NCBI GenBank assembly: GCA_021734685.1
Contig: JAIPIL010000002.1
Coordinates: forward strand, 1-37,654
DNA from: Minisyncoccota bacterium
GTDB lineage: Bacteria > Patescibacteriota > Minisyncoccia > Minisyncoccales > PWPS01
Direction: 5' to 3'
Length of the DNA stretch: 37,654 nucleotides
Part shown: positions 3,508 to 35,334 of the stretch, in pieces
How positions within the stretch are numbered: position 1 is the first letter of the stretch
Layout: every line of letters starts with the position of its first letter
Translations under genes and position numbers: made by a program
The notes under the pieces: generated by a model
Database searches by the model: none
What the model saw: the letters and a program-made list of their open reading frames with translations, nothing else
Told to the model about the DNA's origin: nothing

Positions 3508-3594
3508 GTCATTCCCGCGAAAGCGGGAATCCAGTTTTGAAAATTAAGAAATTGAAAATTCATTGAAAATTGAAAATTGCCAAATTGAAAATTT
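3508..3594 (+). repeat. Intergenic repeat mosaic: HP-A hairpin plus TTGAAAA-type array
   Basis: HP-A GTCATTCCCGCGAAAGCGGGAATCCAG at 3508-3534. Array TTTTGAAAATTAAGAAATTGAAAATTCATTGAAAATTGAAAATTGCCAAATTGAAAATTTT at 3535-3594, identical to 9796-9856. Confidence 0.9.
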
Positions 3595-3635: not shown

Positions 3636-6600
3636 ATGCGTGTAGAAGATATTATCGCCATAAAAATAAAACTGGCATCTCCAGACGACATCTTGAAGTG
3701 GTCTTATGGAGAAGTTTTAGAGCCAGAAACAATTAACTACCGCAATCAGAAGCCAGAAAAAGATGGTCTTTTCTGCGAAAAGATATTTGGCCCTGAAAAA
3801 GATTACAAGTGTTACTGTGGAAAGTATCGCAAAGTTAGATTTAAAGGAACTGTTTGTGATCGTTGCGGAGTTGAAGTAACAAAAGCATCGGTCAGAAGAG
3901 AGAGAATGGGACACATTAAACTTGCCTGTCCTATTGCTCACATCTGGTTTTTGCGTGGAATTCCATCAAGAATGGGGCTTGTTTTGGATATTCCGATGAA
4001 AAGATTAGAAGAAGTGGTTTACTTTAGTTCTTACATAATCACTAAAGTTGATGAAGAAAGTAAAAAGAAAGCAGTTAAGGAAATAAACAAAGAGCACAAA
4101 AAGAGAACAAAAGAGATAAATGCTGAATTCAAAGGTGAGGCTCTTGAAGAAGAGTTAGGTAAACTGAAAGAACAGTTTGACAAAGTAAAAGAAGAACTGA
4201 AATCAATCAAGCTTTTACAGATTCATTCAGAAGCAGAGTATCACCGTCTTTCTATGAAGTATGGAGAGATGTTTGAAGCAAAGTCAGGAGCAGAGGCACT
4301 TCGTGAAGTGTTTGAAAAGATTGATGTAGATAGCATAATTGAAGAGCTGAAAAAAGAAAAAGAAAAAACCGCATCGGTTGGAAGAAGAAAAAAAGCAATC
4401 CAAAGACTGAAACTATTTATCAGAATGAAGAAGGCAGGAATTAAGCCCGAGTGGATGTTTGTTACCATTCTTCCCGTTCTTCCTCCTGAGCTAAGACCAA
4501 TAATTCAACTTGATGGGGGAAGGTACGCATCCTCCGATCTAAATGATCTCTACCGAAGAGTTATAAACAGAAACAACCGCTTAAAGTATCTTTTGGAGAT
4601 AGACGCTCCAGAAGTTATTGTTCGTAATGAAAAAAGAATGCTTCAAGAAGCAGTGGATGCTCTTCTTGATAATCAGATGAGAAAGGGGGTTGTCACTCAA
4701 GCATCAACCGGAGGAACTCGTCTCTTGAAGTCGTTAGCTGATATGTTGAAAGGAAAACAAGGAAGATTTCGTCAAAACCTCCTTGGAAAGAGAGTTGACT
4801 ACTCCGGCCGTTCAGTGATTGTAGTCGGACCTAACTTAGAACTGAATCAGTGTGGAATTCCAAAACAGATGGCTCTTGAGATATTTAAACCGTTTGTTAT
4901 ATCAAAAATATTAGAACAAAAACTTGCCTACAATGTCCGAGGAGCGGGAAGATTGATAGAAGAAGGAACCGACGAAGTGTGGGCGATACTTGAAGAAGTT
5001 GTGAAAGGAAAAACGGTTCTTCTGAATCGTGCTCCTACCCTTCACCGTCTTGGAATACAGGCGTTTAAGCCCGTGCTTGTTGAAGGATACGCTCTTAGAA
5101 TTCATCCGTTTGTTTGTGAGGCGTTTAACGCTGACTTTGATGGAGATCAGATGGCGGTTCACCTTCCTCTCTCTGACAGAGCTCAACAAGAAACAAAAGA
5201 ACTGATGCTCTCTTCAAAAAATTTACTAAAGCCAGCAACTGGGCGTCCGGTTGTTTCACCTTCCCAAGATATTGTTCTGGGTTGTTACTTCTTAACAATG
5301 GAAGAAGACGGAGTAAAAGGAGAAGGAAGCTACTTCTCATCTCCTTTTCAAATTGAGAGTGCTTTAGAGTTTGAAAAGATAGATCTTCACGCTAAAGTAA
5401 AAATAAGAATGGATGGAAAAGTGGTTGAAACAACTGCTGGAAGAGTTATCTTTAATAAAGAACTACCAGAAGGAGTACCTTATCAGAACAAAACAATGAA
5501 ATCTCGTGATCTGAAAGGATTAGTTGAGTTTATAATTAGAGAGTATAAAGACAAAGAGCCACACAAGCTTCTTGATAAAATAAAAGATCTTGGTTTTGAG
5601 TATGCAACAACATCTGGTATCTCTTGGGGAATGAGTGATATTGTTGTTCCAAAAGAAAAGAAAGGAATTTTAGAAAAAGCTCAACAAGAGAAAGAGCAAG
5701 TTGAAAAATACTTCAACAAAGGACTTTTCTCCGATGAAGAAAGAAAAGAAAAAGTAATTGAGATCTGGTCAAAAGCAAAAAAACAAGTTGAGGAAAGCAT
5801 TCCAGGTGCTCTTCCTATCGGAGGGTCAGTGTTTATAATCCTTGACTCAGGAGCAAGAGGATCTTGGTCTCAGCCAATCCAGATGTCTGGAATGAAAGGA
5901 TTGGTAGTTAATCCGTCAGGAGATATTATAGAACTTCCGATAAAAAGTTCTTATCACGAGGGATTTCATCCTCTTGAGTACTTTATTTCAACTCACGGAG
6001 CAAGAAAAGGAACTGCTGATACGGCACTTTGTACAGCGCAGGCGGGATACCTTACTCGTCGTCTTATTGATGTTGCTCACGAAGTTATTGTCACTGAAGA
6101 TGATTGTGGCGATACAGAAGGAATTGAAGTGCTTAGAAAAGATGCTGACGACATATATCAAAATATGTTCTTCAAAATTAGCGGAAGAACCGCCTTGGAA
6201 GATATAAAAATAAAAGGAAAAGTTGTTGTTAAGAAAGGAGAAGTTATTGATGCTGAGAAGGCAAAAATAATTGATGAGTCGGGAATTCCTTCTATTAAAA
6301 TAAGATCTGCTTTGAAGTGTAAAACAGTTCAAGGAATATGCTCTAAATGTTACGGATGGGATATGGGAACAAACGAGATGGCAGGAAAAGGTTTCGCCGC
6401 AGGAATTATTGGTGCTCAGGCAATCGGAGAACCGGGAACTCAGCTCACAATGAGAACCTTCCACACTGGAGGAGTTGCTGGCGGTGCTGACATAACCCTT
6501 GGACTTCCTCGTGTTCAAGAGATTTTTGAAAGAAGAGTGCCAAAAGGAAAAGCAGAAATTTCAGATGTTGACGGAAAAGTTGTTGATATAACCGAAAACA

Positions 6601-7259: not shown

Positions 7260-7331
7260 AGCGGGCGATGGGACTCGAACCCACTTCACGACCTTGGAAG
7301 GGTCGGGTAATAGCCATTATACGACGCCCGC
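7260..7331 (-). tRNA. tRNA-Gly (anticodon UCC)
   Basis: The reverse complement GCGGGCG TC GTAT AATGGCTA TTAC C CGACC CTTCCAA GGTCG TGAA GTGGG TTCGAGT CCCAT CGCCCGC T folds as a 72-nt cloverleaf. GG in the D-loop, TTCGA T-loop, discriminator U, CCA not encoded. Confidence 0.92.
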
Positions 7332-16122: not shown

Positions 16123-16471
16123 GGGGATGCACGTTTCGACAAAATCTCATAGGAAAATATTGCAAGCCGAGCACAATCTCGTAAATCTTGACTTTCACAA
16201 TAAGTGCCAACTTATTTAAAGAAGAACCTGCATTGGCATTAGCTTAAACGCAGGCGTTCCCTTCCTGATTTCTCATAGGGGAGAGTGAATGTCATAAATG
16301 AGGATATGAGATTAAAATTTGAACTTTGTTTTAATCTTGAAAAAAATAAAGTTCGGGAGTAGAAAAATTTTTTCCGATTTAATTTTCTTACTTCTTTAAC
16401 CCCCAATCGGAATAAGCTTGTAGATGTATTTTTCTTGACTTTTGGACGGGAGTTCAATCTCCCCATCTCCA
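16123..16471 (+). ncRNA. ssrA: tmRNA (transfer-messenger RNA)
   Basis: 5' GGGGATGCACGTTTCGAC...GCAAGCCGAG (E. coli has GGGGCUG..UUCGAC..GCAUGCCGAG). 3' GGACGGGAGTTCAATCTCCC-CATCTCC-A (E. coli has GGACGCGGGUUCAACUCCCGCCAGCUCCA). The acceptor GGGGATG/CATCTCC has a G3-U70 pair. Tag ORF 16206-16247 is GCC AAC ... GCT TAA, giving ANLFKEEPALALA. CCA not encoded. Confidence 0.88.
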
Positions 16472-16488
16472 CATAACTTATATAAAAT

Positions 16489-17864: not shown

Positions 17865-18299
17865 TTAAAGTCGTCTTAAATCTCTTTCAATTGTTTTTCT
17901 TTTCAGTGCTTCTCGCTTGTCGTACTTCTTTTTTCCTCTTCCGACTCCGATCTCTAGTTTAATCAATCTTTTTTTCGTATAAATACTTAGAGGAATAATA
18001 GAAATTCCTCGCTCTTTCTTTTTTCCAGAAAGATAATCAATCTGCTTTCTACTTAAAAGCAGTTTTCTTTTTCTTCGTGGGTCGTAATTTTCAGAGGTGT
18101 TTTTTGGTTGATAGGGGGAGATGTGGCAGTTAACAAGAAAGCACTCGTTGTCATCAACAGAAACAAAAGCACCAACAAGCGAAGCCTTCCCTTCGCGCAC
18201 TGCTTTAACCTCTTTCCCAAGTAAAACAATTCCCGCCTCCATCTTCTCTAAGATGTGGTAATCAAAAGTAGCTTTCTTGTTCTTAACTAAAACAGGCAT
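17865..18299 (-). CDS. smpB: SsrA-binding protein SmpB
   Basis: KNKKATFDYHILEKMEAGIVLLGKEVK...; C-terminal basic tail. The ORF extends to 18347, but MPVLVKNKKA (start at complement of 18297-18299) matches the SmpB N-terminus. Confidence 0.92.
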   Translation of the reverse strand: MPVLVKNKKATFDYHILEKMEAGIVLLGKEVKAVREGKASLVGAFVSVDDNECFLVNCHISPYQPKNTSENYDPRRKRKLLLSRKQIDYLSGKKKERGISIIPLSIYTKKRLIKLEIGVGRGKKKYDKREALKRKTIERDLRRL

Positions 18300-18326
18300 T
18301 AACCCAATTCTACCACAAAACAAAAT

Positions 18327-18556
18327 GTTTCCAAAGGAAACACGCAAAACAACGCGAAACTTTTCCCTCCGTCATTCTGAAGGAGGGAAACGACTGAAGA
18401 ATCCCATCACCTCTGCAATCACCATGAGATTCTTCACTTCACTACGCTCCGTTCAGAATGACAGTGGGGTATCATTCCCACCCCCCCTGTCATTCCCGCA
18501 AAAGCGGGAATCCAGTCAATAGTCAAAAGTCACATGTCAAATGTCAATTGTCAACC
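18327..18556 (+). repeat. Composite repeat mosaic in the divergent smpB/argS spacer
   Basis: Hairpin GTTTCC-AAA-GGAAAC 18327-18341; ACGCAAAAC array 18342-18360; PAL-B (92 nt) 18371-18462; degenerate half-site 18471-18479; HP-A with AAAA loop 18489-18515; GTCAA array 18515-18556. Confidence 0.9.
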
Positions 18557-24102: not shown

Positions 24103-24423
24103 AAATAATTTTCAATTTGGCAATTTTCAATTTTCAATGAATGACCAAATGACCAAATGACCAAAACAACCATTTCTGTCATTCTGAAGGAGTGAAACGA
24201 CTGAAGAATCCCATCATTCTTGTAAAAACCATGAGATTCTTCACTACGCTACGCTTCGTTCAGAATGACGGTGGGGTGGCTCTCACGCCCCCTGTCATTC
24301 CCACCCCCACCTGTCATTCCCGCTCCCCCTCTTGTCATTCCCGCGAAAGCGGGAATCCAGTTTTGAAAATTAAAAAATTGAAAATTCATTGAAAATTGCC
24401 AAATTGAAAATTGAAAATTTTAG
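24103..24423 (+). repeat. 321-nt composite palindromic mosaic
   Basis: Inverted TTGAAAA array plus ATGACCAA x3 24103-24177; PAL-B (92 nt) 24178-24269; half-sites 24294 and 24313; HP-A 24334-24360; TTGAAAA array 24361-24423. Confidence 0.9.
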
Positions 24424-26819: not shown

Positions 26820-28067
26820 ATGAAAAAAACCCTCCCAAACAATCTCCGCATCCTAACCCTCCCTCTTGAAAACACCCGTGTTGCCACGGTGTTTGTTTTA
26901 GTTAAAACTGGTTCAAAATACGAACAGAAAGAAACCTCCGGAATATCACACTTTGTGGAACATATGCTCTTCAAAGGAACAGAAAAAAGAAAAACCCCTC
27001 TTGAAGTCGCGGAAGAGTTAGACAAAGTAGGTGGAGTTTACAACGCCTTCACCGGCGAAGAGTACACCGGCTACTACGCAAAAGTTAATGTTGATAAGTT
27101 CTCCCTAGCCCTTAACTGGGTCTCAGACATCTACCTAAACTCCCTTCTCCCAGAAAAAGAGGTGGAGAAAGAAAAAGGAGTAATCAAAGAAGAGATAAAT
27201 ATGTACTTTGATAATCCGATGGCCCACTGTGAACTTCTCTTCCAAGAGCTTCTTTACGGTGACCAACCAGCAGGATGGAACATCGCAGGAACAAAAGAAA
27301 CTGTATCAGCAACCACTCGCAAAGATCTCTTAACTTATATGGAATCACAGTATAAGGCGGAAAATACGGTAGTCGTTGTTGCCGGAAACATAAACAAAGA
27401 AAAAGTGGAAGAAGAAGTGGCACAGGCGTTCTCCACAATCAAGACGGGCACCCCTAGAAAAGCACACCCCGTAGTGGAAAACCAAGAAGGACCAGCAGTC
27501 CTAAACTTCTACAAAGAAACTGATCAAACGCACCTCATCTTAGGAGCAAGAGCATTCAATATGTTCAGCGAACACCGCTACTCCCAAGAAGTGCTTGCTT
27601 CAATCTTAGGAGGAATGATGAGCTCTCGCTTGTTCTCAAAGATAAGGGAAGAGATGGGACTTGCTTACTACATTAAAACAAGCATTGATGACAACCCCGA
27701 CACCGGCGTTTTATACACAAGAGCAGGAGTTGAAAACAGCAAAACCGAAGACGCCGTAAAAGCAATAATGAACGAGTATAAAAAAATAACCGAAGAAAAA
27801 GTAACCGAAAAAGAACTAACAAAAACCAAAGAACACATAAAAGGAAAAACCGCAATAAGTCTTGAATCATCAGACTCGTTAGCCTACTTCCACGCAGTAA
27901 ACGAACTCCTAGAAAACAGAACATACACCCCCGAAGAGATCTTCAAAGCAATAGACAGCGTAACCGCAGAACAGATCCAACAAACAGCAAAAAAAATCTT
28001 CCAACCAAAAAACCTAAACCTAGTGGTATTAGGACCACACAAAAAAACAACCCTCCCGTCATTCTGA
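26820..28067 (+). CDS. M16-family (pitrilysin/insulinase-like) zinc peptidase
   Basis: HxxEH zinc motif in SHFVEHMLFKGT. The track start 26634 lies inside PAL-B; ATG 26820 (MKKTLPNNLRILTLPLEN) is preferred. The TGA stop lies inside a PAL-B arm. Confidence 0.9.
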   Translation: MKKTLPNNLRILTLPLENTRVATVFVLVKTGSKYEQKETSGISHFVEHMLFKGTEKRKTPLEVAEELDKVGGVYNAFTGEEYTGYYAKVNVDKFSLALNWVSDIYLNSLLPEKEVEKEKGVIKEEINMYFDNPMAHCELLFQELLYGDQPAGWNIAGTKETVSATTRKDLLTYMESQYKAENTVVVVAGNINKEKVEEEVAQAFSTIKTGTPRKAHPVVENQEGPAVLNFYKETDQTHLILGARAFNMFSEHRYSQEVLASILGGMMSSRLFSKIREEMGLAYYIKTSIDDNPDTGVLYTRAGVENSKTEDAVKAIMNEYKKITEEKVTEKELTKTKEHIKGKTAISLESSDSLAYFHAVNELLENRTYTPEEIFKAIDSVTAEQIQQTAKKIFQPKNLNLVVLGPHKKTTLPSF

Positions 28068-28380
28068 ACGAAGCGAAGCGTAGTGAAGAATCCCAACGAG
28101 AATTTTCAATTTTCAATTTGACAATTTTCAATAAATGACCAAATTTCCAAATGATTTAATTTTAAAACAACCATCTGTCATTCTGAAGGAGTGAAACGAC
28201 TGAAGAATCCCATCATCCTTGCAGAAACCATGAGATTCTTCGCTTCGCTCAGAATGACGGCGGAGTGCCATTCTCACCCCCTCCCTGTCATTCCCGCGAA
28301 AGCGGGAATCCAGAAACCAGTTTTGAAAATTAAAAAATTGAAAATTCATTGAAAATTGAAAATTGCCAAATTGAAAATTA
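28058..28380 (+). repeat. Composite palindromic mosaic
   Basis: Single PAL-B arm GTCATTCTGAACGAAGCGAAGCGTAGTGAAGAATCCC 28058-28094; inverted TTGAAAA array plus ATGACCAA 28098-28176; PAL-B 28177-28258; HP-A 28287-28313; TTGAAAA array 28321-28380. Confidence 0.9.
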
Positions 28381-29440: not shown

Positions 29441-29581
29441 CAAAAATTTTCAATTTGGCAATTTTCAATTTTCAATAAATTTTCAAATGACCAAATTTCC
29501 AAACAATAAAAACAATTCCCAGCGCCTCAATTGTCATTCCCAGCGTCTCAATTGTCATTCCCAGCTTGACTGGGAATCCAG
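29441..29581 (+). repeat. Repeat mosaic forming the left flank of the GIY-YIG gene
   Basis: Inverted TTGAAAA array plus ATGACCAA 29441-29513; two ATTCCCAGCG(C/T)CTCAATTGTC units 29514-29553; HP-A CAG variant 29554-29581. Confidence 0.9.
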
Positions 29582-29894
29582 TAAACCGTCACCATGAAAA
29601 CATACTACGTTTACATTATGGCAAGCAAAAGAAACGGCACCCTTTATATCGGAGTAACCAATGACTTGGAAAGAAGAATATACGAACACAAAAATAATAT
29701 TATAAAAGGATTCACAGAAAAATATAAAGTTCATTATCTTGTATATTACGAAGAAACAAGTGATATAAAAACAGCAATAGAAAGAGAAAAACAAATAAAA
29801 AAATGGAACAGAAAATGGAAGTTAGAATTAATTGAAAAAGAAAATAAAGAGTGGGTAGATTTAACTACTGGATTCCCGCTTTCGCGGGAATGAC
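29554..29894 (+). mobile_element. Candidate REPtron-like cassette: GIY-YIG gene between inverted HP-A hairpins
   Basis: Left HP-A (forward) 29554-29581, right HP-A (inverted, exact consensus) 29868-29894. 341 bp in total. Confidence 0.4.
29594..29893 (+). CDS. Small stand-alone GIY-YIG nuclease family protein (COG2827/UPF0213-like)
   Basis: 99 aa. YYVYIMASKRNGTLYIGVTNDLERRIYEH...KQIKKWNRKWK is the GIY...YIG...R...E core. The last 8 codons and the TGA lie in an inverted HP-A copy. Confidence 0.9.
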   Translation: MKTYYVYIMASKRNGTLYIGVTNDLERRIYEHKNNIIKGFTEKYKVHYLVYYEETSDIKTAIEREKQIKKWNRKWKLELIEKENKEWVDLTTGFPLSRE

Positions 29895-29931: not shown

Positions 29932-31383
29932 ATGTTCATCACCACCAGCATCGCATACACCAACGCCCCGCCTCACATCGGGTTTGCTTTGGAACTTCTT
30001 CAGGCCGATGTTATTGCAAGATACAACCGTCAACAAAATGTTGCCGTTTATTTTTTAACTGGAACCGATGAGCACGGCCACAAGATTGCAAAGAAAGCGG
30101 AAGAAGAAGGAAAAACCCCCCAACAGTTTGTTGACGAGATAACTGAAAAATACAAACTACTAACTGAAAAACTAAACATCTCCAACGATGACTTTATCAG
30201 AACTACCGATCAAGAAAAACACTGGAAAGGAGTTTACAAGATGTGGAACAAGTTAAAAGAAAGTGGAGACATCTACAAAAAAAAGTATGAAGGACTATAC
30301 TGCGTCGGATGCGAAGCGTTCAAAAGAGAAAAAGAACTGGTTGACGGAAAGTGCCCTGACCACAACAAAGAACCAGAGTTAGTAAAGGAAGAGAACTACT
30401 TCTTCCGTCTCTCAAAATACGAAACCGAGATAAAAAAACTAATCCAAGGTGACACCTTGGAAGTTGTTCCCGAGGGAAGAAAGAAAGAGATTCTTAACTT
30501 TTTAGAGGAAGGATTGGAAGACATAAGTGTTTCAAGAAGCACAAAAATTTTGAAGTGGGGGATTCCCGTTCCTGATGATGACTCACAAGTTCTTTATGTC
30601 TGGGTTGACGCTCTAACAAACTACATCTCTGCCCTCGGATACGGAGAAAACGAAGAAAAACTTGAAAAGTACTGGCCAGCCGACATCCACTTCATCGGAA
30701 AAGACATCTTAAGATTTCACGCGGTAATCTGGATCGGAATGCTTCTTTCTGCAGGATTAAAAATTCCAAAGAAGATACTATCACACGGACACATAACCTC
30801 ACAAGGAAAAAAGATGTCAAAAACACTGGGAAATGTAGTTGACCCTTTCACTATAATAGAAAAGTACGGAGTAGATCCCGTCCGTTACTACCTCTTATCA
30901 GAAATCCCAACATTATCTGATGGAGATTTTTCAGAAAGCCGTTTCATAGAAAAATACAACGCCGACCTAGCCGACGGAGTAGGAAACCTAACCTCCCGAA
31001 TAATCTCCCTAGCCAAAAAACACCCCCCCGTCATTCTGAACGAAGCGAAGCGTAGTGAAGAATCCCATTATCCTTGCAAAAACCATGAGCTTATAGAGGA
31101 GCAGTACCACCAACTAATGAAAGAACTCAAAATCAGCGAAGCCATTGAAAAAATCTGGGAAGTAATCCACCTAACCGACAAGTACATAGAAGAAGAAAAA
31201 CCATGGGAAAAAAAAGAAAACTCCAAACAAGTAGTTGAAACCCTCTTCTCAACAATAAACAAAATCGCAGAAATGCTAACCCCAATCCTCCCCGAAACAG
31301 CCCAAAAAATAAAAAAACAAACAGAAACAAAACAAAAAACCGTATTATTCCCAAAACAACCATCTGTCATTCTGAAGGAGTGA
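29932..31383 (+). CDS. metG: Methionine--tRNA ligase (short form)
   Basis: 483 aa. N-terminal HIGH-type PPHIGF, KMSKTLGN, Cys knuckle CVGCEAF...CPDH. Carries an in-frame repeat insertion and a repeat-derived C-terminus. Confidence 0.95.
   Translation: MFITTSIAYTNAPPHIGFALELLQADVIARYNRQQNVAVYFLTGTDEHGHKIAKKAEEEGKTPQQFVDEITEKYKLLTEKLNISNDDFIRTTDQEKHWKGVYKMWNKLKESGDIYKKKYEGLYCVGCEAFKREKELVDGKCPDHNKEPELVKEENYFFRLSKYETEIKKLIQGDTLEVVPEGRKKEILNFLEEGLEDISVSRSTKILKWGIPVPDDDSQVLYVWVDALTNYISALGYGENEEKLEKYWPADIHFIGKDILRFHAVIWIGMLLSAGLKIPKKILSHGHITSQGKKMSKTLGNVVDPFTIIEKYGVDPVRYYLLSEIPTLSDGDFSESRFIEKYNADLADGVGNLTSRIISLAKKHPPVILNEAKRSEESHYPCKNHELIEEQYHQLMKELKISEAIEKIWEVIHLTDKYIEEEKPWEKKENSKQVVETLFSTINKIAEMLTPILPETAQKIKKQTETKQKTVLFPKQPSVILKE
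31030..31089 (+). repeat. PAL-B left arm plus loop inserted in frame inside metG
   Basis: GTCATTCTGAACGAAGCGAAGCGTAGTGAAGAATCCCATTATCCTTGCAAAAACCATGAG is 60 nt, or 20 codons (VILNEAKRSEESHYPCKNHE). The arm is identical to 28058-28094. Confidence 0.85.
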
Positions 31384-31570
31384 AACGACTGAAGAATCCC
31401 ATCATCCTTGCAGAAACCATGAGATTCTTCGCTCCGCTCAGAATGACGGCGGAGTGTCACTCCCACCCCCCCCTGTCATTCCCGCGAAAGCGGGAATCCA
31501 GTTTGTAATTTTGGACATTGTAATTTGTAATTTATTTGGAATTTGTAATTTTGAATTTGTAATTTAAATT
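31366..31570 (+). repeat. Composite repeat mosaic
   Basis: PAL-B 31366-31447 (contains the metG stop at 31381-31383); degenerate half-site 31456-31464; HP-A 31475-31501; TTTGTAA array 31502-31570. Confidence 0.9.
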
Positions 31571-34665: not shown

Positions 34666-34870
34666 GTCATTCTGAGCGAAGCGAAGAATCCCATCGTAAA
34701 AGCACCAAATCCAAAATCACAAATCCCAAATAAGCACCAATAACCAAAACCCAAAATCCAAAACAACAATTTGTCATTCCCAGCTTGACTGGGAATCCAG
34801 TTTGTAATTTTGAAAATTTGAATTTGTAATTTATTTGTAATTTGTAATTTTGAATTTGTAATTTAATTTT
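34666..34870 (+). repeat. Composite repeat mosaic
   Basis: Single PAL-B arm 34666-34692; AAATCC/AAATCAC array 34693-34772; HP-A CAG variant 34773-34800; TTTGTAA array 34801-34870. Confidence 0.9.
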
Positions 34871-34908: not shown

Positions 34909-35334
34909 ATGAGAAGAAATTTCACACAAAAAGGATTCACCACCCCCCGTCATTCTGACACCCCCCGTCATTCTGAGCGAAGCGAAGAATCCCATCAAAA
35001 AAACGCTTTCACTATAATAGAACTCCTCGTAGTAGTAGCAGTAATTGCAATACTCGCTATCTTAATCCTTATCCCTTTACAAAACGCCCGTGAAAACGCA
35101 AGAATAACAAAAGGACTTCACTTCGCAGAACAGATCCACCGCAAAATTATGCTAGAAAATGAAAGCGAATACAAGTTTGATGACGCCACTCCAGGAACTT
35201 GGCTCACCGAAGGAGAAACAGTAACAGACTTCTCAAACAGCGGAAACGACGGAACAGTAGCCGGACAAGTCTATGTCCAAGCAGAAGGAGTCCCAGGAAC
35301 AGAAAACCCAGCAATATACTTCGACGGAAACTAA
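34909..35334 (+). CDS. Type IV pilin-like protein with a repeat-expanded leader, ending at the start of a LamG-type module
   Basis: MRRNFTQKGFT-[TPRHSDTPRHSERSEESHQKNA]-FTIIELLVVVAVIAILA. The bracketed part is encoded by PAL-B arm copies (34949-34959 and 34967-34993). The C-terminus ...SGNDGTVAG...NPAIYFDGN-stop resembles the entry into a LamG domain. Confidence 0.8.
   Translation: MRRNFTQKGFTTPRHSDTPRHSERSEESHQKNAFTIIELLVVVAVIAILAILILIPLQNARENARITKGLHFAEQIHRKIMLENESEYKFDDATPGTWLTEGETVTDFSNSGNDGTVAGQVYVQAEGVPGTENPAIYFDGN

Follow-up and report, generated by a model that had tools for sequence, protein, structure and literature searches.

How does a piece of DNA of a kind that otherwise lies between genes come to sit in frame inside the gene for an essential enzyme, and what has become of that enzyme? 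This question is raised by metG, the gene for methionyl-tRNA synthetase (MetRS), in a 37,654-nt stretch of the genome of a Minisyncoccota bacterium (Patescibacteriota; Minisyncoccales; PWPS01; assembly GCA_021734685.1, contig JAIPIL010000002.1), referred to below as the window. A segment of this gene at positions 31030-31089 consists of 60 nt of an abundant repeat family. As the window represents 37.6 kb of the genome, statements on the absence of genes refer to its open reading frames (ORFs).

A repeat fragment lies in frame within metG

A sequence-only reading of this DNA had pointed to a 60-nt repeat in metG whose first 37 nt recur at 28058-28094, and this was confirmed. The 37-nt arm that opens the segment is identical to that copy at 37/37 positions, for which the chance expectation is 0, and at 24233-24269 the minus strand holds one more copy, with 2 mismatches. 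The 20-mer ATCCTTGCAAAAACCATGAG (31070-31089) that closes the segment belongs to a loop family of 13 copies, with 0.03 copies expected by chance. The distance from the metG start to the repeat (31030 - 29932 = 1098 = 366 x 3) is divisible by three, which places the first repeat nucleotide at position 1 of codon 367, and in the metG frame the 60-mer reads VILNEAKRSEESHYPCKNHE, both as previously claimed. This is the one stop-free frame among the three forward frames. With copies of the repeat elsewhere and an open frame here, the segment is, as had been proposed, an intergenic-type repeat fragment set in frame within an intact MetRS gene.

The edges and the architecture of the segment differ somewhat from the earlier description. 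The repeat had been placed directly after a helix of the anticodon-binding domain; it does follow the end of that helix (...SLAKKH), with two prolines encoded by CCCCCC (31024-31029) intervening. The same C-rich spacer stands ahead of intergenic copies, e.g. at 34666, 34949 and 37174, and ahead of modules in orthologous metG linkers. Because this is the usual spacer before intergenic copies, the C-run in front of the metG repeat is probably part of the repeat-derived material, and the element-derived stretch is probably ~66-69 nt and not 60. The right boundary (31089/31090) fits the native flank CTT... that is common to two of the closest orthologs (L002 and L003). The segment had also been described as a left arm plus loop. 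A complete element with this arm on the left and the loop does exist in a sister genome (L001, 8639-8732), whereas in the window the 37-nt arm type is otherwise the right arm, reversed. The metG piece consists of the arm (type f) in forward orientation followed by the loop, without a right arm.

The flanks of the segment (...CACCCCCCC/GTCATT and CATGAG/CTTATAGAG) share no duplication, and inspection of the flanking sequence found neither a target-site duplication nor terminal inverted repeats around the fragment. RNA folding gave -6.1 kcal/mol (z -1.1) for the metG arm alone and z -1.3 for the 69-nt metG stretch, which is no significant structure. No terminator-like or promoter-like site was matched on the + strand within the insert, no Rfam family covers the repeats, and an exhaustive phmmer search with a 40-aa query containing the repeat peptide of the window MetRS returned 0 matches. 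The identity at 37/37 positions to a copy 3 kb away indicates that the metG segment is young or recently converted.

The host gene encodes a conserved methionyl-tRNA synthetase

The metG product scores above the curated Pfam cut-offs for both of its domains, with 369 bits (2.5e-110; cut-off 20.1) for tRNA-synt_1g and 37.8 bits (cut-off 25.1) for Anticodon_1. Its best solved relative is the Aquifex aeolicus MetRS (PDB 2csx, E 3.7e-125), and the nearest database proteins are annotated as Patescibacteria MetRS. In an alignment of 18 MetRS sequences, the KMSKS position is KMSKT (residues 294-298), with K294, S296 and K297 invariant and M295 nearly so, and the HIGH position is H15-I-G17-F18, the same throughout the clade. 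Residues N352, R356 and W425, which we take to be equivalent to the anticodon-contact residues N391, R395 and W461 of Escherichia coli MetRS, are invariant in 88 orthologs. An AlphaFold model reached a mean predicted local distance difference test (pLDDT) of 92.1 and a predicted template modelling (TM) score of 0.92, and Foldseek matched it to the MetRS of Staphylococcus aureus, Brucella, Thermus thermophilus and A. aeolicus at TM scores of 0.82-0.89. By domains, motifs and fold, the protein is a class I, MetRS1-type methionyl-tRNA synthetase.

Outside the linker that holds the repeat, the ratio of nonsynonymous to synonymous substitution rates (dN/dS) is 0.089 between the window and L001 and 0.096 between the window and L002, with synonymous divergence (dS) of 0.39-0.53 among the three. 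The gene is under purifying selection, and because dN/dS is low and the KMSKS region, N352, R356 and W425 are conserved, the repeat-bearing metG genes are not pseudogenes.

Repeat-coded residues stand in for the native linker

Ortholog alignments place the segment in a linker that is not conserved and that follows helix 1 of the anticodon-binding domain, in agreement with the sequence-only reading, which had gone on to expect a clean 20-aa indel. That expectation failed. At the linker the window MetRS is 4 aa longer than the A. aeolicus and T. thermophilus enzymes and 1 aa shorter than that of Brucella in PDB alignments, in which the gaps amount to at most 4 aa and none is of 20 residues. The distance from the conserved GNLxxR motif to PWE, measured in 113 Patescibacteria orthologs, is 65-76 aa in most of them, with a mode of 73, and 76 aa in the window. 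A clean indel is contradicted by both measures; because the span is near the ortholog norm and no 20-residue gap separates it from solved structures, the repeat replaces the native linker. The exchange is visible where the linker of a repeat-free ortholog (L003/P0004), K-Y-ESITISNCGK-LEVASL-YH, is set against that of the window, K-H-PPVILNEAKRSEESHYPCKNHE-LIEEQ-YH.

The structure models are consistent with this. In the window MetRS a helix at 335-363 is followed by a 19-residue coil (364-382) and by helices at 383-397 and 401-422. In the model the segment is exposed and forms a coil of low confidence, the surface loop that had been anticipated, with pLDDT below 50 at residues 369-380 and above 90 in the rest of the model. 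The model of a repeat-free ortholog (P0008, pLDDT 94.6) has a helix at 339-368, a confident, ordered 8-residue loop and a helix at 377-395. Since KNHE, the four residues with which the repeat-coded stretch closes, form the opening turn of helix 2 in the window model, the repeat-coded residues stand in, according to these models, for the native loop together with the first turn of helix 2. The position of the insertion is thus predicted to be compatible with the MetRS fold, and the repeat-coded segment is predicted to form a disordered surface loop.

The same linker holds other modules in related genomes

The DNA of this site was read in the six closest orthologs (L001-L006; Table 1). Five of them (L001, L002, L004, L005 and L006) hold other modules of the same repeat family at the linker, including GTTATTCCCGCGAAAGCGGGAATC, GTCATTGCGAGG...GCAATC, GTCATTCTGAGTGAAACGAAGAATC and tandem 18-nt half-modules. 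A distant MetRS (P0089/L039, 55% identical) has GTCATTCTGAGC...GCGAAGAATCCC and a second repeat at the same site, with 12-mer matches to intergenic DNA of its own contig. The possibility raised earlier, that orthologs might carry the same 20 residues, was not borne out in any of 119 homologues. Because five of the six closest orthologs and the distant L039 hold other modules there, the sequences argue that the linker is a recurrent, fast-turnover hot spot; the absorption into MetRS that had been proposed holds for the in-frame fragment, and not as a single event.

The speed of turnover is apparent from L004 and L005, which share 94.6% nucleotide identity outside the linker (dS 0.20) and nothing beyond the flanks inside it. 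Likewise, the linkers of the window, L001 and L002 have only the left edge, AAAAAACAYCCCCC, in common. In the alignment of 88 orthologs, all rare insertion blocks of at least 5 aa fall in this linker, except for two 5-aa blocks near residues 425-428. All seven repeat-bearing alleles (window, L001, L002, L004, L005, L006 and L039) are multiples of three and stop-free, a count that reflects a protein search, which returns intact ORFs only. From these alignments, the linker between helix 1 and helix 2 is the one indel-tolerant place in MetRS, colonised repeatedly.

Further searches added little to this set. An exact-pattern scan of metagenome contigs for the conserved left flank gave no match, a search for related loci in metagenome and genome contigs gave no close relative besides L001, and a protein search with the C-terminal domain alone, aimed at fragmentary alleles, gave 3 distant matches.

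Several linkers have features of their own. In L002 (1930-2100) the half-module, CCTGTCATTCCCGCC plus 3 nt, stands in about seven tandem in-frame copies that read as proline-rich PVTPAS SVTPAS PITPAT PVIPAT .... The repeat-free linker of L003 (2135-2155) contains a perfect 8-bp palindrome (CACAATTA G TAATTGTG), which may be due to chance or be a remnant of another element. Other Patescibacteria MetRS linkers (P0060, P0062, P0073, P0026, P0047 and P0102) show repeat-like or low-complexity peptides such as PACRQAR...PAGRAG, RTLQGAGSRT, SNPKFEIRNPKQIPNSKFQ and ISNFQFLISNKF. The low-complexity linkers of P0026 and P0047 (SNPKFEIRNPKQIPN..., ISNFQFLISNKF...) resemble AT-rich intergenic repeats; on their own contigs, P0026 gave 0 matches of 12-mers and P0047 two, both low-complexity and AT-rich, and neither was counted.

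Mosaic arrays of the repeat occupy the intergenic gaps of the window

The window comes from a host of 38% GC within the Patescibacteria, is ~81% coding and ~19% non-coding, and carries core genes including rpoB, rpoC, ileS, argS, recO, infC, rplT, smpB and pilB/C. A search with the pattern GTCATT[CG]...[CG]AATC found ~58 modules in it, among which six recurring types, here called a to f, were defined (Table 1). Mosaic arrays of these modules lie in almost every intergenic gap and after most genes, and the arrays differ between the window and L001-L006. A common composite unit of 82 nt joins a forward e module, the 23-nt loop and a reversed c or f module; the complete element folds into a hairpin of -29.3 kcal/mol (z -4.4). 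Among the genes of the window metG is the only one with a module in mid-gene, and the leader of a pilin-like gene contains modules. There, the leader MRRNFTQKGFTTPRHSDTPRHSERSEESHQKNA/FTIIELLVV compares with MRKKSSKNA/FTIIELLVV in the L001 ortholog, a clean in-frame gain of 24 aa.

Table 1. Features of metG, its linker in related genomes and the repeat family. Positions are those of the window.
Feature	Position	Strand	Sequence or peptide	Remark
metG (methionyl-tRNA synthetase, 483 aa)	29932-31383	+		Host ORF; intact, in frame through the repeat
C-run spacer	31024-31029	+	CCCCCC	Codons P365-P366; same C-rich spacer ahead of many intergenic copies
37-nt arm module, type f	31030-31066	+	GTCATTCTGAACGAAGCGAAGCGTAGTGAAGAATCCC	V367 to first base of H379
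Loop segment	31067-31089	+	ATTATCCTTGCAAAAACCATGAG	23-nt loop of the composite element
Predicted MetRS peptide stretch			KKHPPVILNEAK	At the repeat-coded segment
L001 metG linker			PPVIPASFVIPAKAGIQSSCHCEEQSDEAIP (peptide)	89% identical (18-sequence alignment); truncated a, full a (GTTATTCCCGCGAAAGCGGGAATC) and d module
L002 metG linker			...CCTGTCATTCCCGCC...	~7 tandem 18-nt half-modules, then an a module; span from GNL to PWE 124 aa
L003 metG linker				P0004, 83% identical; no module; seven modules elsewhere on the L003 contig
L004 metG linker			CHSREGGNP (peptide)	a-type module, different frame
L005 metG linker			VILSETKNL (peptide)	c-type module
L006 metG linker			GTCATTGCGAGCGAAGCGAAGCAATC, then GTCATTCTGAGCGTAGCGAAGAATC	Preceded by a truncated module
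Complete composite element	31366-31447	+		Left arm, loop, right arm; metG 3' end; supplies the tail ...VILKE and stop codon 31381-31383
Module a, hairpin of dRS3 consensus	31475-31498	+	GTCATTCCCGCGAAAGCGGGAATC	Array downstream of metG; -13.6 kcal/mol, z -5.0
Identical solo arm copy	28058-28094	+		Supplies stop codon of upstream M16 peptidase gene
Second in-frame absorption	34949-34991	+		Truncated and full c module; leader of pilin-like gene, ORF 34909-35334
GIY-YIG nuclease gene (29594-29893) with bracket	29554-29894	+		b(+) 29554-29578, a(-) 29871-29894; directly upstream of metG
Module type a			GTCATTCCCGCGAAAGCGGGAATC	
Module type b			GTCATTCCCAGCTTGACTGGGAATC	
Module type c			GTCATTCTGAGCGAAGCGAAGAATC	
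Module type d			GTCATTGCGAGGAGCGAAGCGACGTGGCAATC	
Module type e			GTCATTCTGAAGGAGTGAAACGACTGAAGAATC	
Module type f			GTCATTCTGAACGAAGCGAAGCGTAGTGAAGAATC	

The repeats also reach into gene ends. MetRS orthologs end in ...LFPK(x) without a repeat-derived tail, and the window MetRS ends in ...QPSVILKE. The M16 peptidase (28058-28067) ends in ...LPSF with its TGA within GTCATTCTGA, and a GIY-YIG protein (29871-29893) ends in ...TGFPLSRE. The C-terminal tails and stop codons of these three genes come from repeats, and the ends of their orthologs differ. The repeat in the pilin-like leader lies in a peptide usually removed by cleavage.

The + strand carries all loop copies (13/13; e.g. 7489, 20287, 28215, 31404 and 37212) and almost every a and b module. 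One composite (18371-18462) lies between the divergently transcribed smpB and argS, so that it is downstream of no + strand gene. Module orientation may be tied to the chromosome strand and not to transcription. Among the RNA genes of the window, a transfer-messenger RNA gene (16123-16474, +) that scored 116.5 bits is found upstream of infC, close to smpB (17865-18347, minus strand), and a tRNA gene (7260-7331, minus strand) follows rpoC.

Module a fits a repeat consensus known from Neisseria

The Neisseria repeat dRS3 is a 20-bp inverted repeat with the consensus ATTCCC-N8-GGGAAT (PMC1797815). Module a (ATTCCCGCGAAAGCGGGAAT) fits this consensus exactly, with 14 copies in the window, e.g. at 3511, 7562, 15200, 28290, 31478, 33529 and 35473, and 0 expected. 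The metG arm ends in ATTCT...AGAAT with an N21 centre and was not filed as dRS3, because it does not fit the consensus. The 24-mer of module a, GTCATTCCCGCGAAAGCGGGAATC, is identical to a sequence upstream of Neisseria gonorrhoeae pilE (PMC7593972) and was found in N. gonorrhoeae records and in 109 IMG/VR contigs; IMG/VR yielded no exact copy of the metG arm type. In a blastn search, an array with this 24-mer matched plasmid-collection records of Neisseria, Azospirillum, Photobacterium, Sphingobium and Sphingopyxis, and no phage match to the array was obtained. The modules contain GCGAAGC or GCGAAAGC, both of which are described as exceptionally stable DNA mini-hairpins (PMC13037366).

The isoleucyl-tRNA synthetase (IleRS) gene ileS on Sphingopyxis indica plasmid pMC4 (L150, NZ_CP076395.1 30515-33586) contains a-like modules in two inverted pairs, both in frame: RHPRESGDPERASANPTLDSRFRGND at about residues 338-364 and RHPRESGNPERASADANMDSRFRGND near the C-terminus. 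Alignment to solved IleRS leaves out the stretch that contains the first pair.

At the level of sequence, in-frame dRS3-like modules in a synthetase gene extend beyond the Patescibacteria. A full-text search of the literature for the repeat DNA or its peptides returned only the sequence upstream of N. gonorrhoeae pilE, and no description of such repeats or their peptides in Patescibacteria was found.

Small GIY-YIG genes are bracketed by modules

Directly upstream of metG, a gene for a 99-aa GIY-YIG protein (Pfam 2.2e-18) is bracketed by modules. Five such bracketed genes, encoding proteins of 95-99 aa, were found (window 29554-29894, L002 344-684, L004 1944-2298, L006 1-330 and L064 3005-3377), each with a forward module just ahead of the start codon and a reversed a-type module at or over the stop codon. 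They represent two subfamilies and four contexts, namely upstream of metG, downstream of metG, upstream of an AI-2E transporter gene and on an IMG/VR contig. L001, L003 and L006 have no GIY-YIG gene at the corresponding place, and a counter-example, in L113, lacks the bracket. The bracketed gene may be a mobile unit and is a candidate mobiliser of the repeat family.

The slot that separates the AI-2E transporter gene from metG is taken by the GIY-YIG gene in the window and in L002 and, in L001, by a gene of the 23S_rRNA_IVP (four-helix-bundle) family (4612-5001), so that two different small genes fill the same slot in sister genomes.

Discussion

We consider it probable, at roughly 0.8, that the metG segment is a truncated modular hairpin repeat lying in a permissive linker of MetRS, translated as a disordered loop and without function beyond joining two helices. 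In the sequence of events that we envisage, a selfish modular hairpin repeat would have entered the linker between helix 1 and helix 2 of the anticodon-binding domain, either in an ancestor or several times independently, and native residues as well as the right arm would then have been lost to in-frame deletions. What the linker contains would since have been exchanged with other copies by recombination or gene conversion, or renewed by repeated insertion and in-frame deletion. The linker would in effect be an intergenic mosaic array embedded in a gene, in which exchange of the content far outpaces divergence of the remaining gene. A recent event fits the identity at 37/37 positions to the copy 3 kb upstream. 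The copy would persist because the only stop-free forward frame is the one used, the partner arm needed for a strong hairpin has been lost and the site is a structurally permissive loop; acting as three filters, these conditions may together explain why a single copy among ~58 modules lies in mid-gene.

Four points weigh against this account. We infer translation of the segment from its frame and from selection on its flanks, and the segment itself, being young or recently converted, gives no sign of selection on its own protein sequence. In very close relatives no empty-site allele was found, the nearest repeat-free ortholog being 83% identical, and for this reason neither the original insertion nor the native sequence that it displaced can be reconstructed exactly. 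Finally, helix topology in the model places the linker at the same end of the helix bundle as the anticodon-contacting W425, so that an effect on tRNA binding is possible; a study of how MetRS recognises tRNA offered nothing on this loop at the level of residues.

This last point leads to the explanation that survives best among the alternatives, which is still an unlikely one: that the linker, near the anticodon-binding end, is an adaptive hypervariable loop whose fast exchange is selected, for tRNA binding or for escape from an inhibitor, toxin or partner, with the repeats serving as cassettes. The swapping of linker content far faster than the gene diverges (L004 and L005), its recurrence across distant lineages, the topological position near W425 and the proposal that Neisseria arrays promote variation of flanking genes (PMC1797815) would all suit such a loop. 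However, the native linker is unconserved among repeat-free orthologs and the segment is modelled as disordered, the insert is identical in DNA to a non-coding copy and so gives no sign of selection on the peptide, and no partner or toxin is known. That the same family also turns up in C-terminal tails and in the cleaved leader of a pilin fits passive tolerance instead.

An assembly artefact, in which a misjoin at a repeated k-mer introduced or rearranged the repeat during metagenome assembly, is a good deal less probable again. A genome saturated with near-identical repeats is a known cause of misassembly, and the protein is known from this contig only. Yet both flanks of the segment are metG and in frame, a misjoin of two loci would not restore the 97 C-terminal residues of MetRS, and six independent assemblies (L001, L002, L004, L005, L006 and L039) have repeats at the same codon-level site, also in frame.

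It is slightly less probable still that the segment is present in the DNA and missing from the protein, removed or bypassed at the level of RNA or translation. Nothing direct favours this, the nearest pointer being that rRNA genes of Patescibacteria are known for intervening sequences (PMC11270868). If the segment were removed its frame would not matter, and all seven alleles are multiples of three and stop-free even though the modules carry stops in other frames; there is moreover no strong structure, no match to an Rfam family, and a self-splicing intron would need more than 60 nt. An intron, intein or bypass was rejected on these grounds of frame, structure and length. The reverse direction, in which the family arose from metG or the 20 residues are native to MetRS, has nothing in its favour and is highly improbable given 0/119 homologues with the residues, different modules in relatives, ~58 modules in the window and one member of the family occurring across phyla.

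Comparison with known systems suggests that the nearest precedents for a translated repeat in a permissive linker are the Rickettsia palindromic elements (RPEs) and the dRS3 arrays of Neisseria and the mosaic elements between its genes (NIMEs). RPEs are dispersed, palindromic, selfish repeats that occur in intergenic DNA as well as in frame within housekeeping genes, where the ORF stays intact and the peptide is judged compatible with the fold (Ogata et al. 2000 Science, 2002 Genome Res, summarised in PMC10969869). The metG repeat is similar in being both intergenic and in frame inside an intact housekeeping ORF. RPEs, however, are ~100-150 bp long with a family-specific conserved peptide, whereas the modules here are of 24-37 nt and mosaic, with a metG piece of 60-69 nt; and here a native loop is replaced rather than a peptide added, with different modules and peptides at the site in sister genomes. 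The likeness is one of behaviour, and the phylum sets the two apart. With dRS3 and NIMEs (PMC1797815) the window shares module a and intergenic mosaic arrays that differ between relatives. NIMEs are described as non-coding, in contrast to the metG copy, whose arm is not dRS3. No Piv/IS110-type recombinase or filamentous prophage gene was found among the window ORFs.

Repetitive extragenic palindromic (REP) sequences and bacterial interspersed mosaic elements (BIMEs) of enterobacteria combine short imperfect palindromes with fixed linker motifs into mosaics that lie mostly just downstream of genes, with an orientation bias. REPs are extragenic by definition, and the REP-associated tyrosine transposase (RAYT) is a Y1 transposase. 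The mosaic palindromes here are alike, with an 82-nt hairpin as the complete element, and no RAYT was found among the window ORFs, in which the small GIY-YIG is the only nuclease gene associated with modules. Prokaryotic MITEs (miniature transposable elements with inverted repeats) such as BOX, ERIC and Correia are non-autonomous and can fuse in frame with host ORFs (PMC10969869); the metG fragment differs in having neither terminal inverted repeats nor a target-site duplication, and its unit is much shorter.

On how the repeats move, a speculative reading, to which we give a low probability, is that the modules form part of a pan-bacterial, dRS3-like family of DNA hairpins, with the small GIY-YIG nuclease gene between inverted modules as its autonomous form. 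Solo modules, arrays and the metG copy would then be non-autonomous copies or footprints, able, thanks to frames free of stops, to settle in permissive loops of essential proteins across several phyla, as with the module pairs in Sphingopyxis ileS. If so, a mobilising enzyme would have been named for dRS3 and NIMEs, for which a phage-encoded transposase or recombinase was the only candidate (PMC1797815). Short of that, the link to the dRS3 consensus and the bracketed GIY-YIG gene are leads on how such repeats move.

For the translated repeat in the MetRS linker, which we favour, the consequences reach beyond this locus. Repeat-coded segments in marker proteins of Patescibacteria can distort alignments and inflate apparent divergence, and the linkers of related genomes amount to a natural series of exchanges beside the site at which an aminoacyl-tRNA synthetase binds the anticodon. 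The presence of selfish DNA in essential genes, known mainly from Rickettsia, would now extend to the Candidate Phyla Radiation (Patescibacteria). Compared with the Rickettsia case as summarised (PMC10969869), what is added here is that native structure is replaced, that one loop of one enzyme is hit repeatedly, and that its content turns over far faster than the gene around it.

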